A stretch of DNA of 32,000 bases from Desulfatiglans anilini DSM 4660 (GCF_000422285.1 NZ_AULM01000011.1:76425-108424); one strand, 5' to 3'. Counted from the first letter of the stretch, positions 6,005 to 32,000 are shown. A program made the numbers and translations. Notes: a model not told the origin generated them from the sequence alone.

Positions 6005-6174
6005 AAGGACATCAAGCGTTTGCGCGGAGGCGACCTCGTTTCCAATCCGGAAATGAGGATTCTTGGCCAATATCCAGGAAGTCAAGCGTTTAGGCGGAAG
6101 CGACCCGGTGGTCGCCGCACAAGCAAGCGTGCAGATCGACGCCGAGATCAGCGGGCAGACCTCTTTCGGATGGA
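6005..6174 (+). repeat. MITE-like modular repeat, copy A (rearranged, lacks module 2 and the left terminus)
   Basis: It aligns by eye to copy C. 6005-6036 is a fragment of module 3, 6038-6064 is module 1 (GTTTCCAATCCGGAAATGAGGATT) and 6065-6169 is module 3. It ends with the terminal motif CTCTTTCGGATGGA. Confidence 0.75.
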
Positions 6175-24835: not shown

Positions 24836-25110
24836 TCCATCCGGAAATGGTCTTTTGGCCCAATCTCTGCGTCAATCTTTGCGCTTGCTTGTGCGCCGGC
24901 CACCAGGTCGCCCCCGCGCAACCGCTTGATTTCTTCGATCTTGGCCAGACCGGGACCCGCCCCGCAGGGGTGGGACTGAGCACGCGCAGCGTGTGAAGAA
25001 ACCGGGAACCCGCAGCGCGGCGGTGGGATCGAGCAGCCGAAGGGTGTGAAGAAAAATCCTCATTTACCGATTGGAGACCGGGTTCCACCGGGAAATCATC
25101 TTTGAATGGA
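24836..25110 (-). repeat. MITE-like modular repeat, copy B (inverted relative to A and C, module 2 duplicated)
   Basis: The + strand starts TCCATCCGGAAATGGT and matches the reverse complement of copy C over its whole length. About four in five positions match by eye in the first 100 nt. An internal tandem duplication spans 24949-25000 and 25001-25053. Confidence 0.8.
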
Positions 25111-25213: not shown

Positions 25214-25253
25214 GGTGTAGGAAATCAAGACAAGGTGTGTAGGAAAAGACAAC
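25214..25253 (+). promoter_or_regulatory. Tandem 2 x 20-bp direct repeat, candidate upstream activator site
   Basis: GGTGTAGGAAATCAAGACAA followed by GGTGTGTAGGAAAAGACAAC, about 210-240 bp upstream of the sigma54 promoter. The 20-bp period would place both units on the same helix face. Confidence 0.35.
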
Positions 25254-25456
25254 ATAGTGGCTTAAAGCAGGAAATACCGGGTTCGCCTCTTTGGGCAGCA
25301 GCGGATTATAGGTATGGTACTAGGCTGCACTGTTGTATTTCACGCCAACCTAGTCCTCTTCGATGGAGGCAGGATCTGGCCGCCCTTCTTTTCCTTTGGA
25401 TAAAAAATTTAATATGATCAGTATGATATGTCGTATTTTCTCCATTTGATCCGGTT

Positions 25457-25472
25457 TGGCACGCAGGTTGCT
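25457..25472 (+). promoter_or_regulatory. Sigma54 (RpoN) -24/-12 promoter
   Basis: TGGCAC gcagg TTGCT matches the TGGCAC-N5-TTGCW consensus exactly. It lies about 55 nt upstream of the ATG at 25527. An AT-rich tract (25400-25440) lies upstream, where a bending site would be expected. Confidence 0.72.
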
Positions 25473-25526
25473 TAAGAAGACAACCAACACAAGACATCAC
25501 CCTTCCTCTAAAGAAAGGAGCAGGAC

Positions 25527-26525
25527 ATGGCTAGCAAAGATGCAGAAAATCGGAGAGCGACGGTGGGGTACGGTTCGACCTATCGCAGGGGCCGTAGCCA
25601 GGACCCCGCGGATAACGCCTCGCTGAAGGCGGTTTTGAACGGACAGCTCTGGATGGTCAAGCCGGACAAGCAGGCCCAGGCGGCCAATCCGTGCATCTGG
25701 ATGCAGGCGGGCGTGGTCGATTTCAAGAACTGCAACAACTTCTACGATTGTACGACCTGCAAGTATGATGGGGGTATGAAGAAAAAGGTCGAGAAGGGGG
25801 CCGCGACCGGTTGGCGGGATGCGATGCGGCGGAGGCCCGGCCTGGAGCGGGTCTGCCGCCACACCTTGACGAACCGGATCGAGGAGCGGGTCTGCGCCTA
25901 CGATTACGCCTGTCACAAGTGTGACTTCGACCAGTTTTTCGAGGACGTGTGGGCCCCGAAAACGGCGTCCCGGCCGGACGAGATGCACGATGTCAAAGGC
26001 TTTGCTGTCCCGACGGGCTATTATTTCAACGACGGCCACTCATGGGCCCGGATCGAAAGCGGCGGGTACATCCGGATCGGCATGGACGACTTCGCTCTCA
26101 AGCTGTTTGGCAGGGCCGATGCGTATGAACTGCCGGTTATCGGGAAAGAGTTGTCTCAGGGCAAACCTGGATGGGGTTTCAAACGATCGGCGCAGGAGGC
26201 CGAGGCCCTTTCGCCGGTGAACGGGGTTATCGTCGAGGTCAACGGCGATCTGCGTGAAAAGCCGGCGATGGCGAATGCCGGGCCTTATGAGGCCGGATGG
26301 ATGATGCTCGTGAGGACACCCGATATCAAGGGAACACTGGCGAATCTGATGACCGACGCCGACAGTATCGGATGGCTGAACCAGGAGGTGAGGCAGCTGG
26401 AAGGCATGATCGAGGAGGTGGCCGGACCTCTGGCGGCAGACGGTGGTACACTGGGTGAGGACATCTATGGGAATCTGCCGGGTCTTGATTGGGGCAACCT
26501 CCGGCGTGCGTTTCTCAAAAGCTGA
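25527..26525 (+). CDS. GcvH-fold protein lacking the lipoyl-lysine, with two N-terminal C-X12-C-X5-C-X2-C modules
   Basis: 332 aa, with SD AAAGGAG. The Cys modules are at Cys56/69/75/78 and Cys110/123/129/132. The C-terminal half, YYFNDGHSWARIE...IRIGMDDFA...LSPVNGVIVEVNGDL...PYEAGWMM, is collinear with glycine cleavage H protein. Confidence 0.78.
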   Translation: MASKDAENRRATVGYGSTYRRGRSQDPADNASLKAVLNGQLWMVKPDKQAQAANPCIWMQAGVVDFKNCNNFYDCTTCKYDGGMKKKVEKGAATGWRDAMRRRPGLERVCRHTLTNRIEERVCAYDYACHKCDFDQFFEDVWAPKTASRPDEMHDVKGFAVPTGYYFNDGHSWARIESGGYIRIGMDDFALKLFGRADAYELPVIGKELSQGKPGWGFKRSAQEAEALSPVNGVIVEVNGDLREKPAMANAGPYEAGWMMLVRTPDIKGTLANLMTDADSIGWLNQEVRQLEGMIEEVAGPLAADGGTLGEDIYGNLPGLDWGNLRRAFLKS

Positions 26526-26832
26526 TCGCGAAGCGGAGCACCCTGCTGGGAGCCCGCCACGCAGCGAGTCCTTTTTCGTAGTCAAGCGCGATGCAGCCGG
26601 GCAGGCCGGGCCCGGCTCCAAGGTCTCATGCTGAGGGTGGATGCGGCGAAAGACTGAAACCGGCCGGCATAAACGACCGGTCCGAAAACGAGGTTTTGCG
26701 GCGGAAATCAGCGGAATCAAGCCGTCGGGCGCATCCTGACGCCCGATCATCTTAGAGGCGGGAATTGCAGGGAAGCAGAAGAAAACCGGGAAAGCCCGCT
26801 TGCCGGGGCAACCGGATCCAGGGAGAGATGCT

Positions 26833-27552
26833 ATGGAAAAAGAGAGGGAGACCGGAAACCGACTGGATGCGCGCCGTCCATGCAAGAGGCATGTGGAAGG
26901 ATACATCGGATACCGACCCTGCACCCATGATTACCGCTGCGATGATTGCGAGTTCGAGCAGTTTTTCCTGGATCACTACCGGGTTCATGCGGTGGTTCAG
27001 CCCGTTGATACGATCAAGATCCGGGGGTTCGATGTGCCGCAGGGGTATTATTTTCACGCGGGCCACACGTGGGCGAAGGTCGAGGGAGACCAGACGGTGC
27101 GTATCGGGCTGGATGATTTCGCCTTCAAGACGCTCGGCCCCTTCGACCGCCTCGATGTGCCGTTGATTGGAAAGGAGATCCATCAGGATCGTCCAGCCGT
27201 AACGGTTTATCGGGATGAACACCGCTCGGCCGTCCGTTCGCCGCTGAGCGGTATTGTGACCGCTGTCAACCAGGAGCTTCTCGAGGATGCGCGTGCGGCG
27301 TTCGACCATCCCTATGCCGACGGATGGCTTCTGACAGCCCATGCTACGGCGCTCAGGAGCGATCTGAAACAGCTCATGATCGATCAAGAGACGAAAGCGT
27401 TTATGCGGAAAGAGGTCGACGAGCTGTTCGGTCTGATCGAGGAGACCCTGGGGCCTATGCCGAACGATGGAGGCGATATCCGGGGCGACCTGTACGGAGA
27501 AGCTCCGGAGATTGGCTGGGACAGGTTGAGCCGCCTGGTTTTCAAGACGTGA
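26833..27552 (+). CDS. GcvH-fold protein lacking the lipoyl-lysine, with one N-terminal C-X12-C-X5-C-X2-C module (paralogue)
   Basis: 239 aa from the ATG at 26833, after SD AGGGAGAG. The track ORF starts at a TTG at 26800. The Cys module is at Cys17/30/36/39, followed by YYFHAGHTWAKVE...VRIGLDDFA...RSPLSGIVTAVNQEL...PYADGWLL. Confidence 0.78.
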   Translation: MEKERETGNRLDARRPCKRHVEGYIGYRPCTHDYRCDDCEFEQFFLDHYRVHAVVQPVDTIKIRGFDVPQGYYFHAGHTWAKVEGDQTVRIGLDDFAFKTLGPFDRLDVPLIGKEIHQDRPAVTVYRDEHRSAVRSPLSGIVTAVNQELLEDARAAFDHPYADGWLLTAHATALRSDLKQLMIDQETKAFMRKEVDELFGLIEETLGPMPNDGGDIRGDLYGEAPEIGWDRLSRLVFKT

Positions 27553-27637
27553 AACTGCGCACTTTCCGGAAGGAAACCAACTCCTGTCCAGATGTTCCCT
27601 GCCTCAGAGGGGACCCCGGATCGGCAAACGGCGTGAT

Positions 27638-28207
27638 TCAAGGCGTTTCTTCCGCCATCCTGTCCAGTTCGTCTTGGAGGAGAACCCTGCAATATCGGCA
27701 GAATGCCTGGGATTTGCGGTCGACATGCTCGATTTTGCGGCAATAGTGCATGATGCAGCGGGTTTCAGGGCAATGCTTGAGATTGAAGGTGTGGCCGAGT
27801 TCGTGGACGGCCTCCTTCATGAGGCGGCAGCGGAGTCGTTCAGGATCGCCTCCGGCAGAGATCCCCTCGTTCAGCCGGTGGGTCGAGACGATGCAGGCCC
27901 TGCCACCCAGTTGAGCTTCGCCGTAAACGTGGGTGAGGATCGGAATGTACAGGTCGCGGTCGGTGACGGCCAGGATCTTCAAGGCATCGGGCGGGGCGAG
28001 TTCAGCAAGCCGGGTGAGGATCGCCGTCGAATGGTATTGATCCCTTTGCGTGTTGTAAGCGAAATCGATGCTGTCCAAGAGGGGCATGGCGACTGTCGGA
28101 TAGCCGAAAAGACGACTGATTTCGAGGCCGACGGATTCGAGATAGGATTCCTGGCCGTCGCTAATGGAAGTCAGGACGATGATGGATGATGCCTTTCCTG
28201 GTTTCAA
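27638..28207 (-). CDS. Archaemetzincin-type zinc metallopeptidase (peptidase M54)
   Basis: It has HELGHTFNLKHCPETRCIMHYC...CRYC, matching the HEXXHXXGX3CX4CXM...CXXC signature with G replaced by N. The upstream region DRDLYIPILTHVYGEAQLGG is typical of AMZ proteins. The proposed TTG start at 28207 overlaps the activator stop as TTGA and follows AGGAAGAAGGA. The track ORF to 28297 would overlap the activator by 94 nt. Confidence 0.78.
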   Translation of the reverse strand: MKPGKASSIIVLTSISDGQESYLESVGLEISRLFGYPTVAMPLLDSIDFAYNTQRDQYHSTAILTRLAELAPPDALKILAVTDRDLYIPILTHVYGEAQLGGRACIVSTHRLNEGISAGGDPERLRCRLMKEAVHELGHTFNLKHCPETRCIMHYCRKIEHVDRKSQAFCRYCRVLLQDELDRMAEETP

Positions 28208-29550
28208 TCCTTCTTCCTGATTCCGTAGCGCTTCATTTTGCTGTAAAGGGTCGACCGGTCGATGCCCAATGTCTCCGCGCACTTGGATATATTCCACTGG
28301 TGTTGTTCAAGGATTTTAACGATGTGGGCCTTCTCGAGTTCTTTCAGGGACTGATCGGCGGGCTCGAGGGTCATCTGGTCCGGGCTGAAGATCGGCAGAT
28401 GTTCAGGCAGGATGGTCGGGCCTTTGGCAACGACGACCGCCCGTTCGACGGCGTTTTCCAGTTCCCGGATATTGCCCGGCCATTCATAGAGCATCATCTC
28501 GTCCAGGGCGTCACGGCTGATCCGTTCGACCGGTTTGTTCGTCTCCTGCGCGAAACGGTGCAGGAAATGCGCGGCAAGCAGAGGGATGTCCTCTTTACGT
28601 TCCCTGAGGGGCGGCATCTCGAACGTAAACACGTTCAAGCGGTAGTAGAGATCCTCCCGGAAGCTCCTTTCGCGGATCGCCTGCTCCAGGTTGCGGTTGG
28701 TGGCTGCAATGACGCGGAAATCCACCTCGAGCGGCTGGGTGCTTCCGAGGCGGTAAAAGACATGATCCTCGAGGATCCGCAGTAGATCGATCTGCATCCG
28801 CATGCTGATCTCGCCGATCTCATCGAGAAAAAGGGTGCCGCCGTGGGCCAGTTCGAATCGTCCCTTCTTGGTCTCTTTGGCATCGGTGAAGGCCCCTTTC
28901 TGATAGCCGAACAACTCGCTTTCGAGAAGCTGTTCCGGAAAGGCGCCGCAGTTGATCGAGACGAAGGGCCCGGCGCAGCGGCGGCTGAGGGTGTGGACGG
29001 CCTTTGCGGCGAGGCCCTTGCCCGTGCCGGTTTCACCCCGGATCAGGACGGTCGAGTCGGTCGGGGCGACATCGCGGATCAGCTCGAAGACCTTCTGCAT
29101 GGCCTTTGACTGGCCGATCATGCTTTCGAAGCGGGTCCTTTCGCGCACTTCCTGTCGGAGATACTGGTTTTCGAGTGCCTGCAGCTGCTGTTTTTCGATC
29201 CGCTCGATCAGGATTCCGAGTTCGTCCGGATCGAACGGTTTCATCAGGTAGTCGGTGGCGCCGTGCTTCATGGCTTCGACCGCCGTGTTGACCGAACCGT
29301 ACGCCGTGATCATGATGACGGCGATGTCAGGATCGTTCTCCTTGACAGCCTTCAGGACGTCCAGACCGCTCATGCCCCCCATCTTGATGTCCAGCAGAAT
29401 GATATCGAAGCGGGATTCTTCGATCATCGCCAGGGCCTCTTCGCCGCTCGAAGCGGTCTTCAGTTGATGCCCGTCTCTTTCAAGCCAGCCTGCCAGAGAT
29501 TCCCTTACGATGAGTTCATCATCGACGATCAGGATCTTGCTGCCGCCCAT
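28204..29550 (-). CDS. Sigma54-dependent response regulator (REC - AAA+ - Fis-type HTH; NtrC family)
   Basis: REC domain: KILIVDDE...[17 protein letters not shown]+ domain: [31 protein letters not shown]: [25 protein letters not shown]. The ATG at 29550 follows AAGGAGG with 5-nt spacing. The track start at 29580 is a TTG extension. Confidence 0.92.
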
Positions 29551-29791
29551 GGAGCCCTCCTTGTTCGTTTCCGTTCCCAAACTGTTCCGCCGGTCGCTCT
29601 CTGTACCGGACCGCAGGCCGTTTCGTGCCGACCCCTATGCGCGGTGATCCGTCCAGGCGGATCCCCGCTTTTGCTGCCCCCGGCCGGAGGGCGGCCTTTG
29701 CGCGTCGAAGATGCTCCTGGGATGGATGCTGGCTCCATTCGAATGCCACCTCCTGCTCATCGGGGAATGGCTGCCAAGCGGGGCCTGCCTT

Positions 29792-29915
29792 TCCATCCGG
29801 AAGTGAGAATGTTTCTTCGCAGTGGGCCCCGGGTTTTTCCGTATCAAGCATACGAGGCGTTTGTTCGTGCGGCGACCCGGAGGTCGGCTTCGTGCAAATG
29901 AGCATTCCGTACGCC
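29792..29915 (-). repeat. MITE-like repeat, copy D (degenerate, module 3 plus terminus) between the kinase and activator genes
   Basis: The + strand starts TCCATCCGGAAGTGAG, the same terminus as copy B. The core GTGCGGCGACCCGGAGGTCGGC...GCAAATGAGCATTCC is collinear with module 3 of copies B and C but carries indels. Confidence 0.55.
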
Positions 29916-30016
29916 TCCCTTCTGGAGATTGGGCAGACCATGGATCTGGATAGTTTTCCCACGGCCTGAGAACAGCGGACTTTTCGACACGCTGTCATAG
30001 GTTTCGGACGCGCGCA

Positions 30017-31567
30017 TCAGGCGCCCTGGCTCGCCTCCCGATTCACCGGGAGTTTGACGAGAAAGGTCGTGCCCTTGTCCGGCTCCGACTGAACCTCGAT
30101 GGTCCCGCCATGGTTTTCGATGATGCCGTAGGCCACTGAAAGACCCAATCCGACGCCCTTCCCTTTAGTCTTGGTGGTGAAGAAGGGTTCGAACAGGCGC
30201 GGGAGGTTTTCTTTGGGGATGCCGGGGCCGTTGTCCTCGAATGTAATGAAGACCTGGCCGGCTTCTTTGACGTCGCCGGTCCTGATCGTCAGCGTGCCGC
30301 CGGGCATTGCCTCCATGGCCTCGGCGGCGTTGGAAATGAGGTTCATAAAGATCTGCTGGAGGTGATCCTCCGAGCCCATGACCTCGGGAAGCCCGGGATC
30401 GAGGTCGGTAACGACGCTCACATTGTGTATCTTGAGGAGATTCGAGTTCAGGAACAAGGTCTTCTGCACCAGCCGGTTGAGATCGACGAGTTTCAATTCA
30501 ATTTTCGACTGTCTGGAGAACGTGAGCAGGTTGGAGACGATCCTGCTGATCCGCCGGGTTTCCGTCTCCATGAGGTCCAGGTAGCGGGCGAATTTCTGCA
30601 GGTCCTCGGTTGTCAGGCGCCCCTCCTGGCTGATGCGTTTCATGAGCAGGATCAGGTTGAGAATGCCGGCTATGGGATTGTTGATTTCGTGGACGACGGA
30701 AGCGGACAGCTTTCCCAAGGAGGCCATTTTGTCCTGATGAAGGAGTTTGGCGTGCGTTTCTTCAAGGGCTTTCGTCCGCTCCTCGACCATCCTCTCCAGG
30801 CGCTGGGTGATGCGCTCTTCCTCGCGTTTCCGGTCGGTGATGTCGCGGCTGACTTCGATGAATTTCGATATTCGGCCGTTGTCCTCGAAGATGGGGAACA
30901 TGGTGACTTCGGTATAAATGGGCTGTCCGTCGCTGTCGATACGCGTTACGACCTGCTGTGAAGGCTCCCTGTTCCTGATGGCCTCGTTCATGGGGCAGAA
31001 GATGATGCCTTCGTTGCAGGGCTGGTTGCCTTTCTGGAAGACCTCATGGCAGGAGTGTCCGACGACCTGCTCGCGGGTGTAGCCCATTTTGGTCAGGAAG
31101 GCCTCGTTCACCTCCACGATCTTTCTGTCCGGGGTGATGACGAGAATAAAGTCCTGAATTCCGTTGAGGATGGTTTCCATATCGAGGCTGCGGTCACGCC
31201 ATTTGGCTTCCTCAAGCCGGGTGGCCGCCCAGAACATCATAAAGACCGCGCGGGTCATGATGCGGATGTGATCGGGGCTGTGTTTGAGGACGTCGTCGGT
31301 GACTTTTTCGTCCCGGCAAAGGACCAGAATCAGGTGGATATCGAGGGATGGGTCGTAAAGCGCATGGTAATCTTCGAGGACGCTGAGCCCGATGGATTTC
31401 GCGAAGAGGACTGCCGGGCTCTCCGGGTCGGGGTCGACGACGGCGACATACCGGGCCTTGACATCCTCCTGGGAATAGGAACTGGTGGTCTTTTCGAGGA
31501 CCTCGCGGGCCAGTTTTCCGCCGCCGACAATCCCGATATTCAGCAGCGAAGGCGGGTGTTCGACCAT
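30017..31567 (-). CDS. Cytoplasmic sensor histidine kinase (Rossmann-like N-domain - Cys-rich PAS - HisKA - HATPase_c)
   Basis: 516 aa with no hydrophobic segment. N-terminus: NIGIVGGGKLAREVLE. PAS domain contains HSCHEVFQKGNQPCNEGIIFCPMNEA. H-box: SVVHEINNPIAGI. N box: NLISNAAEAM. G boxes: DNGPGI and GKGVGLGLS. Confidence 0.9.
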   Translation of the reverse strand: MVEHPPSLLNIGIVGGGKLAREVLEKTTSSYSQEDVKARYVAVVDPDPESPAVLFAKSIGLSVLEDYHALYDPSLDIHLILVLCRDEKVTDDVLKHSPDHIRIMTRAVFMMFWAATRLEEAKWRDRSLDMETILNGIQDFILVITPDRKIVEVNEAFLTKMGYTREQVVGHSCHEVFQKGNQPCNEGIIFCPMNEAIRNREPSQQVVTRIDSDGQPIYTEVTMFPIFEDNGRISKFIEVSRDITDRKREEERITQRLERMVEERTKALEETHAKLLHQDKMASLGKLSASVVHEINNPIAGILNLILLMKRISQEGRLTTEDLQKFARYLDLMETETRRISRIVSNLLTFSRQSKIELKLVDLNRLVQKTLFLNSNLLKIHNVSVVTDLDPGLPEVMGSEDHLQQIFMNLISNAAEAMEAMPGGTLTIRTGDVKEAGQVFITFEDNGPGIPKENLPRLFEPFFTTKTKGKGVGLGLSVAYGIIENHGGTIEVQSEPDKGTTFLVKLPVNREASQGA

Positions 31568-31776: not shown

Positions 31777-32000
31777 TCCATCCGGGAATGATTTCCCGGA
31801 AAAACCCGGTTTCCAACCCGGAAATGAGGATTTTCTCGCCACACCCTTCAGGTGCTCAGTCCCAACGCTTTGGCGTGAGGCTGGTCCCGGTTTTTTTCAA
31901 TATCAAGGAAATCAAGCGTTTGCGCGGAGGCGACCTGCAGGTCGCCGCACAAGCAAACGTGCAGATTGACGCCGAGATTGGCCAAAAAGACCATTTCCGG
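31777..32000 (+). repeat. MITE-like modular repeat, copy C (near-complete, right terminus cut by the window edge)
   Basis: It starts TCCATCCGGGAATGAT and contains the palindrome TCCGGGAA-tgat-TTCCCGGA at 31781-31800. Modules 1, 2 and 3 are present once each. The window ends in ...GACCATTTCCGG, which is the inverted copy of the left terminus. Confidence 0.8.

Follow-up and report, generated by a model that had tools for sequence, protein, structure and literature searches.

A probable sigma-54 induction module for two H-protein-like genes lacking the lipoyl-lysine in Desulfatiglans anilini

Introduction

Sigma-54-dependent circuits of the NtrC type, such as ZraSR-zraP, AtoSC-atoDAEB, and NtrBC-glnA, are composed of a HisKA/HATPase kinase, an activator with REC, AAA+, and Fis-type helix-turn-helix (HTH) domains, and a -24/-12 promoter, together with several upstream palindromic enhancer sites, an AT-rich bending region, and a target operon adjoining the regulator genes. 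The same features recur in a five-gene locus of Desulfatiglans anilini DSM 4660, which is read here as a module spanning positions 25214-31567 of a 32,000-nucleotide (nt) stretch of DNA (GCF_000422285.1, NZ_AULM01000011.1:76425-108424). This whole stretch is referred to as the window, and all coordinates are counted from its first letter unless a related locus is named. On the plus strand, the module carries two paralogous H-protein-like genes, H1 (25527-26525, 332 amino acids (aa)) and H2 (26833-27552, 239 aa), and on the minus strand an archaemetzincin of peptidase family M54 (27638-28207, 189 aa), an NtrC-family response regulator and sigma-54 activator (28204-29550), and a soluble histidine kinase (30017-31567). 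The module differs from the described circuits in the input of its soluble kinase, which combines a Rossmann-like domain with a Cys-bearing PAS domain, in the GAFTDA loop of its activator, in the predicted coupling of a metalloprotease to that activator, and in its lipoyl-less H-like targets.

Three further groups of described proteins bear on this locus. GcvH and the lipoate-binding protein LbpA (PMC6067878) share with H1 and H2 the barrel-sandwich H-protein fold (TM-score 0.85-0.92, normalized to the target), and LbpA resembles them further in that the module, too, lies near Hdr-type genes. The differences are the missing lipoyl-lysine, the added N-terminal Cys4 modules, a C-terminal extension of ∼55 aa, and a neighborhood in which HdrL-MvhD is found and no gcvPT, lpd, lipoate ligase, or sHdr (hdrC1B1A-hyp-C2B2) set was seen. 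Archaemetzincins (AmzA, AMZ1/2) have a HEXXHXXGXXHC...C...C..C architecture that the M54 protein reproduces except for Asn in place of Gly (HELGHTFNLKHC). CarG of Myxococcus, an archaemetzincin homologue acting as a non-proteolytic transcription cofactor with Q in place of the catalytic E, is the only homologue in bacteria for which a part in regulation is known (PMC3427221); it is likewise embedded in a transcription-regulatory context, but the M54 protein of the window keeps the catalytic Glu and is partnered with a sigma-54 activator rather than with the HMGA-type protein of CarG. Finally, HdrL/HdrA-MvhD systems of sulfate reducers are discussed, without H-like proteins, in the papers on D. 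autotrophicum and S. fumaroxidans (PMC2702500, PMC5947623). HdrL-MvhD is the usual next neighbor of the module, and the GcvH domain with its C-terminal extension also occurs fused to domains of this kind; H1 and H2 themselves contain no Hdr or Mvh domains, and HdrL has no sigma-54 promoter.

A first-pass annotation, made from the sequence of the window alone, had read the locus as a signal-inducible module with the two H-like proteins as its effectors and had not recognized the combination as a described system. No description was found in the openly searchable literature, which does not extend to subscription-only papers. We consider it probable that the locus is a dedicated enhancer-dependent sigma-54 induction module for H1 and H2. 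In its regulatory logic it follows the ordinary pattern; what is new, as far as we know, is the family of effectors and the constancy with which they are paired with an archaemetzincin.

Promoter and Enhancer Sites

The predicted sigma-54 promoter of H1 reads TGGCACGCAGGTTGCT and occupies 25457-25472 on the plus strand. This exact TGGCAC-N5-TTGCT element is the single match to TGGCAC-N5-TTGCW on both strands of the 32-kb window, for which shuffled sequence yields an expectation of 0.01 matches at zero mismatches and 0.68 at no more than one. It ends 54 nt before the ATG of H1 (25527), which follows a Shine-Dalgarno sequence, AAGGAG, at 25515-25520, and transcription is predicted to start near 25482-25484. 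The first-pass annotation was therefore correct in placing such an element about 55 nt upstream of the first H gene. For comparison, related loci were assembled from 80 species-representative GTDB loci, taken from 209 scanned stretches encoding a relative, and six metagenome loci. An element of the type TGGCAY-N5-TTGCT was present 37-88 nt 5′ of the H1 start in 82/82 loci with enough upstream sequence, with zero or one mismatch in 81 and two mismatches in one. Alignment of these promoters showed information concentrated in the GG and GC dinucleotides, with ∼2 bits per position, and nearly absent (∼0) from the spacer, which is what one would expect if the sigma-54 promoter is functional. By this comparison the H1 promoter is real and goes beyond a chance match.

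Upstream of the promoter lie three candidate enhancer sites (upstream activating sequences). Site 1 (TGTAGGAAATCAAGACA, 25216-25232, 13.8 bits) is a 17-bp imperfect palindrome 241 nt upstream of the -24 element, site 2 (TGTAGGAAAAGACAACA, 25238-25254, 16.9 bits) follows 22 nt, or two helical turns, after it, and the proximal site 3 (TGTTGTATTTCACGCCA, 25331-25347, 11.3 bits) lies 126 nt upstream of the -24 element. When the 32-kb window was scored with the position weight matrix (PWM) of the motif, site 2 ranked best, site 1 second, and site 3 fourth, so that three of the four top matches fall upstream of H1. The first-pass annotation had described this region as carrying an AT-rich tract and a direct repeat of two 20-bp units. 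The repeat exists, with units of 22 nt (25215-25236 and 25237-25258, 73% identity), and a reading as two imperfect palindromes of 17 bp suits it better; the AT-rich tract was recovered, and the third site had been missed.

The same organization emerged across the related loci. Enrichment of k-mers identified TGTWGRAWW as the conserved part of the repeat, and this half-site occurs on both strands at fixed distances from the -24 element, forming 17-bp palindromes at about -230, -209, and -117 with the symmetrized consensus TGTTGGAAATTCCAACA. Site 1 of the window fits the distal class at about -230. The half of the palindrome that had not been used in selecting the sites was conserved as well (C13 in 118/131, A15 in 118/131, and C16 in 121/131), and adjacent half-sites were spaced 21-22 nt apart in 12 site pairs. 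Matches of at least 13 bits numbered 178 in the 416-bp regions upstream of H1 versus 16 elsewhere in the ∼1 Mb of DNA fetched. A distal site was found in 74/79 loci, and a proximal site (≥10 bits, between -140 and -100) in 68/79 versus 3/79 in a control interval. The enhancer sites are thus established as conserved elements by comparison among sequences.

The AT-rich tract of the window (25390-25456) adjoins the promoter and has 28% G+C versus 59% for the window, which makes it a candidate bending region or site of the integration host factor (IHF) type. In 79 loci, the interval from -60 to -21, relative to the start of the -24 element, contains 71-81% A+T, and a second conserved AT-rich tract lies at about -200 to -151. 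An IHF-like consensus was present in 22/79 loci: 16 have it at a fixed -41 to -43, and the other 6 have it at -30/-31. Separately, a divergent rubrerythrin/ferritin-like gene is located upstream of H1 in ∼10 loci (e.g., L003, 7142-7609; L014, 9159-9626), where it and H1 have in common the intergenic region that carries the enhancer sites.

Gene Linkage and Distant Relatives

H1 was followed by H2 in 81/81 related loci with room for both genes. No sigma-54-like site was detected in the H1-H2 gap in any of 74 loci, so that a separate sigma-54 promoter for H2 was rejected and the two genes are probably co-transcribed as one predicted mRNA. In the window, this gap spans 307 nt and is not significantly structured (z = 0.51). 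Very stable hairpins with a common stem of the GGCACGAAGACAC...GTGTCTTTGTGCC type occur within 120 nt after the H1 stop codon in L034, L047, L066, and L077; strong hairpins of this kind are limited to some loci and absent from the window. Such hairpins may belong to a repeat element, or they may terminate transcription partially and so set the ratio of H1 to H2.

An operon of M54, activator, and kinase genes lay within 10 kb downstream in 27 of the 36 loci whose flank extended to 8 kb or more, mostly convergent with H1-H2 and with a median H2-M54 distance of ∼57 nt. Where this operon was several kilobases from H1-H2, M54 was still kept with the activator and kinase genes. A reverse search starting from M54 homologues retrieved kinase-activator-M54 in 3/3 loci, two of which also had H2-H1 adjacent, and thereby recovered the module. 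Homologues of the two H-like genes thus show the conserved neighborhood that the first-pass annotation had proposed to look for, and the linkage stands on comparison. Activator orthologues in the loci of Desulfobacteria are 67-74% identical, compared with 60-66% for H1.

That annotation had also held that the usual partners of H proteins are absent. Among the scanned open reading frames (ORFs) of the window, a set from which about nine long ORFs in 1-21000 were left out, no gcvP/T/L, lipoate ligase, or sHdr gene was found, which upholds this view; it had not taken in an HdrL/MvhD operon that begins ∼650 nt past the window end and is distinct from the sulfur-oxidizing sHdr system. Nor did the flanks show a lipoate ligase or sHdr gene. 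Homologues of gcvP and lpd were found near the module in just 1/93 related loci, and a canonical glycine-cleavage context was accordingly rejected. In the exception, the metagenome contig L091 (1-4862), kinase-activator-M54-H2-H1 directly adjoins a complete canonical set composed of gcvP1, gcvP2, an lpd-like gene, an AsnC regulator gene, and a gcvH that retains the lipoyl-lysine; the canonical GcvH of that genome carries the VESVKA motif.

The family to which H1 belongs extends well beyond these loci. An exhaustive profile search retrieved 4296 family representatives at E ≤0.001 and 1373 at E ≤1e-10. Members have in common the GcvH fold and, behind it, a C-terminal extension that closes with a DGG motif. 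They differ at the N-terminus, which may carry Cys4 modules (one, two, or four), one transmembrane anchor, or redox domains joined by fusion. As a distant set, 80 metagenome loci of the membrane-anchored branch, 32-38% identical to H1, were retrieved with a profile built from a six-sequence alignment; the named members of this branch belong to Candidatus Handelsmanbacteria and Candidatus Latescibacterota. Homologues of the window activator were encoded in 16 of the 80 (46-53% identity, or 49-53% where ∼440 aa align), M54 homologues in 14 (34-50%), and the kinase core in 15 (∼40%). Two layouts were observed. In one, the genes follow each other on a single strand in the order H-like, NrfC-like Fe-S, NrfD-like, kinase, and activator, then M54 where the contig allows; in the other, which is convergent as in the window, the H-like gene faces M54-activator-kinase-NrfD-NrfC. 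The PWM trained on Desulfobacteria gave 2.5-2.7 matches/kb in the 400 nt upstream of the distant genes versus 0.06/kb elsewhere, and a sigma-54-like promoter (TGGCAY-N5-TTGCC) lay within 150 nt of the start in 55/73 distant loci. By this sequence comparison, activator family, binding motif, promoter type, and target family are conserved together across distant lineages, which is the strongest experiment-free evidence that this activator family drives H1.

The NrfC-like proteins of the distant modules (L109, L130, L134, and others) begin with MSKA(I/L)LYD.T.C.GC and have no twin-arginine signal, and in this they differ from other NrfC-like paralogues on the same contigs. Without such a signal, the Fe-S subunit would face the cytoplasm, as is predicted for the membrane-tethered H-like domain.

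The H-Like Proteins

Both H-like genes of the first-pass annotation were verified as members of the GCV_H fold (Pfam GCV_H, 1.4e-18 for H1 and 6.8e-18 for H2), with the refinement that the lipoyl-lysine is replaced in each. Neither protein approaches the GcvH equivalogs: TIGR00527 scored 66.6 bits for H1 and 63.7 bits for H2 versus a cut-off of 115.85, and equivalog models overall gave 64-70 bits versus cut-offs of 116-117. The NCBIfam model GcvH_rel_desulf (NF045810) scored 22.1 bits with H2 versus a cut-off of 150 and had no match in H1. At the position of the lipoyl-Lys (E-S-V-K-A motif), alignment to the GcvH of Mycobacterium tuberculosis places Ala in H1, and a hand alignment places Glu in H2; among the orthologues of both proteins this column is not conserved. 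Judged from these alignments, H1 and H2 are neither lipoate carriers nor carriers of glycine-cleavage intermediates, and the loss of the lipoyl-lysine explains the absence of lipoate and gcv partners.

H1 begins with two Cys4 modules of the form C-x12-C-x5-C-x2-C (C56/69/75/78 and C110/123/129/132), whose eight Cys are invariant in 17 orthologues. The GcvH fold follows at about 160-280, and then a conserved helical C-terminal extension with a PLAADGG motif. In the AlphaFold2 (AF2) model, residues 151-332 have a mean predicted local distance difference test (pLDDT) score of ∼89, and a Foldseek search of the PDB with H1 returned GcvH structures only (E down to 2.6e-11). The spacing and invariance of the Cys suggest that the Cys4 modules bind a metal or an Fe-S cluster. 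No signal peptide or transmembrane segment was seen in H1 or H2 on inspection by eye, without a prediction tool.

The longest ORF of H2 opens with a TTG at 26800. The ATG at 26833 was taken as the start, giving 239 aa, because the closest relatives have 239-243 aa and start at ATG. H2 is short (239-243 aa) throughout the Desulfatiglans clade, where it keeps one Cys4 module and has lost the first; elsewhere it has ∼308 aa and two modules. A degraded first module in the H1-H2 spacer was considered and rejected, as 26526-26832 holds no remnant, and the short H2 is, by this comparison, a clean lineage variant.

Activator, Kinase, and Archaemetzincin

The kinase, NtrC-type activator, and archaemetzincin that the first-pass annotation had named beside the H genes were each supported by domain matches, and the activator is the only protein of the window with a sigma-54 activator domain, as had been stated. 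It matches Pfam Sigma54_activat (4.3e-71), Response_reg (5.5e-33), and HTH_8 (2.3e-15). Its sigma-54 contact loop reads GAFTDA where the canonical sequence is GAFTGA; this variant is kept in orthologues, belongs to the loop variants expected to retain activation, and is also present in DVU2106 of Desulfovibrio vulgaris, an enhancer-binding protein (EBP) with an assigned regulon (PMC4641369). Curated models were scored below their cut-offs in each case (AtoC, 473 versus 714; NtrC, 419 versus 559; ZraR, 418 versus 760), and the circuit is therefore no orthologue of AtoSC, NtrBC, or ZraSR.

The kinase consists of an N-terminal Rossmann-like domain with a GxGxxG-type motif (VGGGKLA), followed by PAS, HisKA, and HATPase domains (Pfam PAS_9, HisKA, and HATPase_c). 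Scanned alone, the N-terminal 127 aa matched GFO_IDH_MocA with 26.7 bits versus a cut-off of 24. Three Cys of the PAS domain (Cys173, Cys184, and Cys191) are conserved. No transmembrane segment was seen by eye, consistent with the earlier description of the kinase as soluble.

The archaemetzincin matches Pfam Peptidase_M54 (2.9e-23) and, when scored on a 219-aa reading with a GTG start (27638-28297), the NCBIfam model archmetzin with 150.1 versus a cut-off of 145; the CarG-type model scored 119, below its cut-off of 250. Its motif, HELGHTFNLKHC...C..M..C...CRYC, departs from HEXXHXXGXXHC in having Asn where Gly is expected. The catalytic HExxH and the Cys4 element are kept in 40 orthologues and in the distant loci, in all lineages, and by these residues the protein is catalytically intact. 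Its TTG start overlaps the TGA stop of the activator gene (TTGA), which suggests translational coupling of M54 to the activator. We know of no physiological substrate or role for any member of the archaemetzincin family.

Redox Neighbors and Fusions

An HdrL gene (NfnB plus HdrA-like, ∼1400 aa) starts ∼650 nt beyond the end of the window in the same genome, divergent from the kinase gene, and downstream of HdrL lie MvhD, two Fe-S genes, and an NfnA-like flavoprotein gene (L087, 16700-20999; L090, 839-9347). In the annotation HdrL is divided between a 59-aa gene and, after it, one of ∼1400 aa; a selenocysteine codon may account for the split. In 19/31 loci with an examinable region upstream of the kinase gene, HdrL was divergent from it. 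No sigma-54 site was found upstream of the kinase operon, and the kinase-HdrL intergenic region had a -24/-12 site in 0/31 loci and enhancer-like sites in only 4, so that autoregulation of the kinase operon and co-regulation of HdrL were both rejected.

Ten long or multidomain relatives were scanned from among the 150 best representatives, and four carried redox-domain fusions. They include a Fer4-MvhD-molybdopterin-binding protein of Desulfobacca acetoxidans annotated as "hydrogenase iron-sulfur subunit", a FAD-oxidase-Fer4-CCG protein of Anaerolineae, and a Fer2-Fer4 fusion. Neighbors, fusions, Cys4 modules, and the kinase input point to a redox-linked role for the family.

Proposed Mechanism and Alternatives

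In the mechanism that we propose, the cytoplasmic kinase would sense an intracellular signal, most likely redox, through its Rossmann-like and Cys-bearing PAS domains and would phosphorylate the NtrC-type activator. The activator would bind the three TGTTG-N7-CAACA palindromes, which lie 5′ of the -24 element at distances of about 240, 220, and 125 nt, and the AT-rich tract would help it to contact sigma-54 RNA polymerase at TGGCAC-N5-TTGCT and open the promoter, yielding a single H1-H2 mRNA. The resulting proteins would be cytoplasmic, each combining a lipoyl-less H fold with one or two Cys4 modules and the family-specific C-terminal extension. With low confidence, we suggest that they might act as induced partners of Fe-S/flavin redox machinery, such as HdrL-MvhD in Desulfobacteria or the NrfCD-like pair in the distant lineages. 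The archaemetzincin, as their constant partner, would most plausibly process H1 and H2 or turn them over. The first-pass reading of a signal-inducible module with H-like effectors is thus supported by comparison in its linkage, promoter, and enhancer, while activation by this particular kinase-activator pair is what we infer. It is possible, and we hold this tentatively, that the conserved core of activator, TGTTG-N7-CAACA enhancer, sigma-54 promoter, lipoyl-less H-fold protein with its C-terminal extension, and archaemetzincin constitutes an unrecognized, widespread redox-stress response, in which a cofactor-stripped H fold serves as an inducible Fe-S/flavin partner and as a substrate or partner of the archaemetzincin.

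Several observations weigh against parts of this reading. The M54-activator-kinase trio is not within 10 kb in 9/36 loci, and rpoN does not lie within the window. A second REC-type sigma-54 activator gene stands directly upstream of H1 in L017 (7636-8994), L040 (2905-4263), L046 (2128-3486), and L067 (1459-2817), where these second activators are 36-38% identical, and the downstream activator of L005 (11878-13436) has no REC domain; given such other activators beside H1 in a few loci, co-conservation is the basis on which the activator is assigned. HdrL, having no sigma-54 promoter before it, is a neighbor and not a member of the regulon, and the fusions to redox domains are few. The Cys modules are modeled with low confidence (pLDDT 45-63) and match no curated domain, zf-CHY reaching 18 bits versus a cut-off of 31.3. 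The assignment of the Rossmann-like domain is borderline, as a scan of the full-length kinase gave GFO_IDH_MocA 23.2 bits, below the threshold of 24.

The variable linkage and the additional activators would be expected if the promoter is real but served by another EBP, the adjacent operon being a mere syntenic neighbor, and Desulfobacteria encode dozens of such activators (PMC12316311). We regard this as unlikely, since the activator orthologues are better conserved than H1, the same enhancer motif and promoter accompany homologues of the activator and M54 genes in distant loci, and the motif is nearly confined to the regions upstream of H1. That H1 and H2 are instead ordinary lipoate-carrying H-proteins under sigma-54 control, whether for glycine cleavage or of the sHdr/LbpA type, is hardly credible: the Pfam match near 1e-18, the public annotation "glycine cleavage system protein H", and the gcv neighbors of L091 speak for it, but the lipoyl-lysine is gone, the scores fall far below the GcvH cut-offs, gcvP and lpd homologues are missing from all but one of the related loci, no lipoate ligase or sHdr gene was seen among the scanned ORFs of the window, and the genome of L091 keeps a GcvH of its own. 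A stress response to metal (zinc) on the model of ZraSR-ZraP, with the Cys4 modules buffering or chaperoning the metal, would account for the eight invariant Cys of H1 and the weak zf-CHY match, and ZraR (418 bits) and ZraS (161 bits) are among the better matches of the activator and kinase. These scores are far under the cut-offs of 760 and 479, however, and distant members without Cys modules keep the same regulation. ZraS senses periplasmic metal and ZraP is itself periplasmic, unlike the cytoplasmic kinase and H-like proteins of the window, and a metal-stress role seems very unlikely.

More weight belongs to an explanation in which the H-like proteins serve mainly as substrates of the archaemetzincin or as its regulators, forming an inducible proteolytic switch to which the redox neighbors are incidental. 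M54 stays with the activator and kinase genes even when their operon lies several kilobases from H1-H2, its HExxH and Cys4 zinc-finger motif is retained in every lineage, and the GcvH fold with its C-terminal extension remains constant across the family while the N-termini vary; CarG of Myxococcus provides a precedent for a role in regulation (PMC3427221). Yet neither a cleavage site nor a degron can be recognized, M54 is predicted to be co-transcribed with the regulators and not with H1 and H2, and CarG, with Q for E, is non-proteolytic, unlike the M54 protein of the window. We therefore view the proteolytic switch as doubtful, and continue to favor a dedicated sigma-54 induction module for H1 and H2, in which processing or turnover by M54 would be one component.

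Other Features of the Window

H1 is 99% identical to a protein of GCA_900498135.1. PADLOC defense-system models had no match in H1, H2, M54, or the kinase, and the activator matched RtcR models solely via its generic AAA+ region.

The five-gene module is flanked by inverted copies (24841-25110 and 31777-32000) of a dispersed intergenic repeat of ∼270 nt, whose arms align over 103 nt at 84% identity and 58 nt at 79%. The left copy contains an internal 50-nt tandem duplication (24952-25054). A partial copy (29858-29997) lies in the activator-kinase gap, which at 466 nt is unusually long, and a further copy is located at 6064-6148. With copies elsewhere in the window and within the module, the flanking repeats belong to a dispersed genomic repeat, and their interpretation as module-specific mobile-element boundaries was rejected. 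The repeat may be an element of this genome resembling miniature inverted-repeat transposable elements (MITEs) or repetitive extragenic palindromic (REP) sequences. It has no Rfam match, and a search of the whole window at Rfam gathering thresholds returned no RNA family.

Farther upstream, 4015-24406 holds a gene cluster of the anaerobic phenol/4-hydroxybenzoate type, which is unrelated to the module. It encodes an aldehyde:ferredoxin oxidoreductase, PPDK_N and PEP-utilizer proteins (phenylphosphate-synthase-like), UbiX, a UbiD protein resembling the phenylphosphate carboxylase beta subunit (506.8 bits versus a cut-off of 469), a Mo-hydroxylase with a FAD subunit (4-hydroxybenzoyl-CoA-reductase-like), two CoA ligases, two UPF0261 proteins, and a LysR regulator.

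Significance

If this reading is true, hundreds of database entries from Desulfobacteria and other phyla that bear the name "glycine cleavage system protein H" would not be lipoylatable and should not be counted as components of glycine cleavage or of the reductive glycine pathway in metabolic reconstructions. The locus would provide a complete and testable regulon, comprising sensor, activator, three-site enhancer, promoter, and targets, that is conserved in more than 200 species-level genomes among environmentally important sulfate reducers. The same set is met again in metagenome loci of a related family, the named members of which belong to other phyla. The enhancer motif would be usable for assigning this activator family. 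Archaemetzincins, and HdrL/MvhD-type complexes, whose electron partners are uncertain, would gain constant genomic partners together with an inducible promoter.

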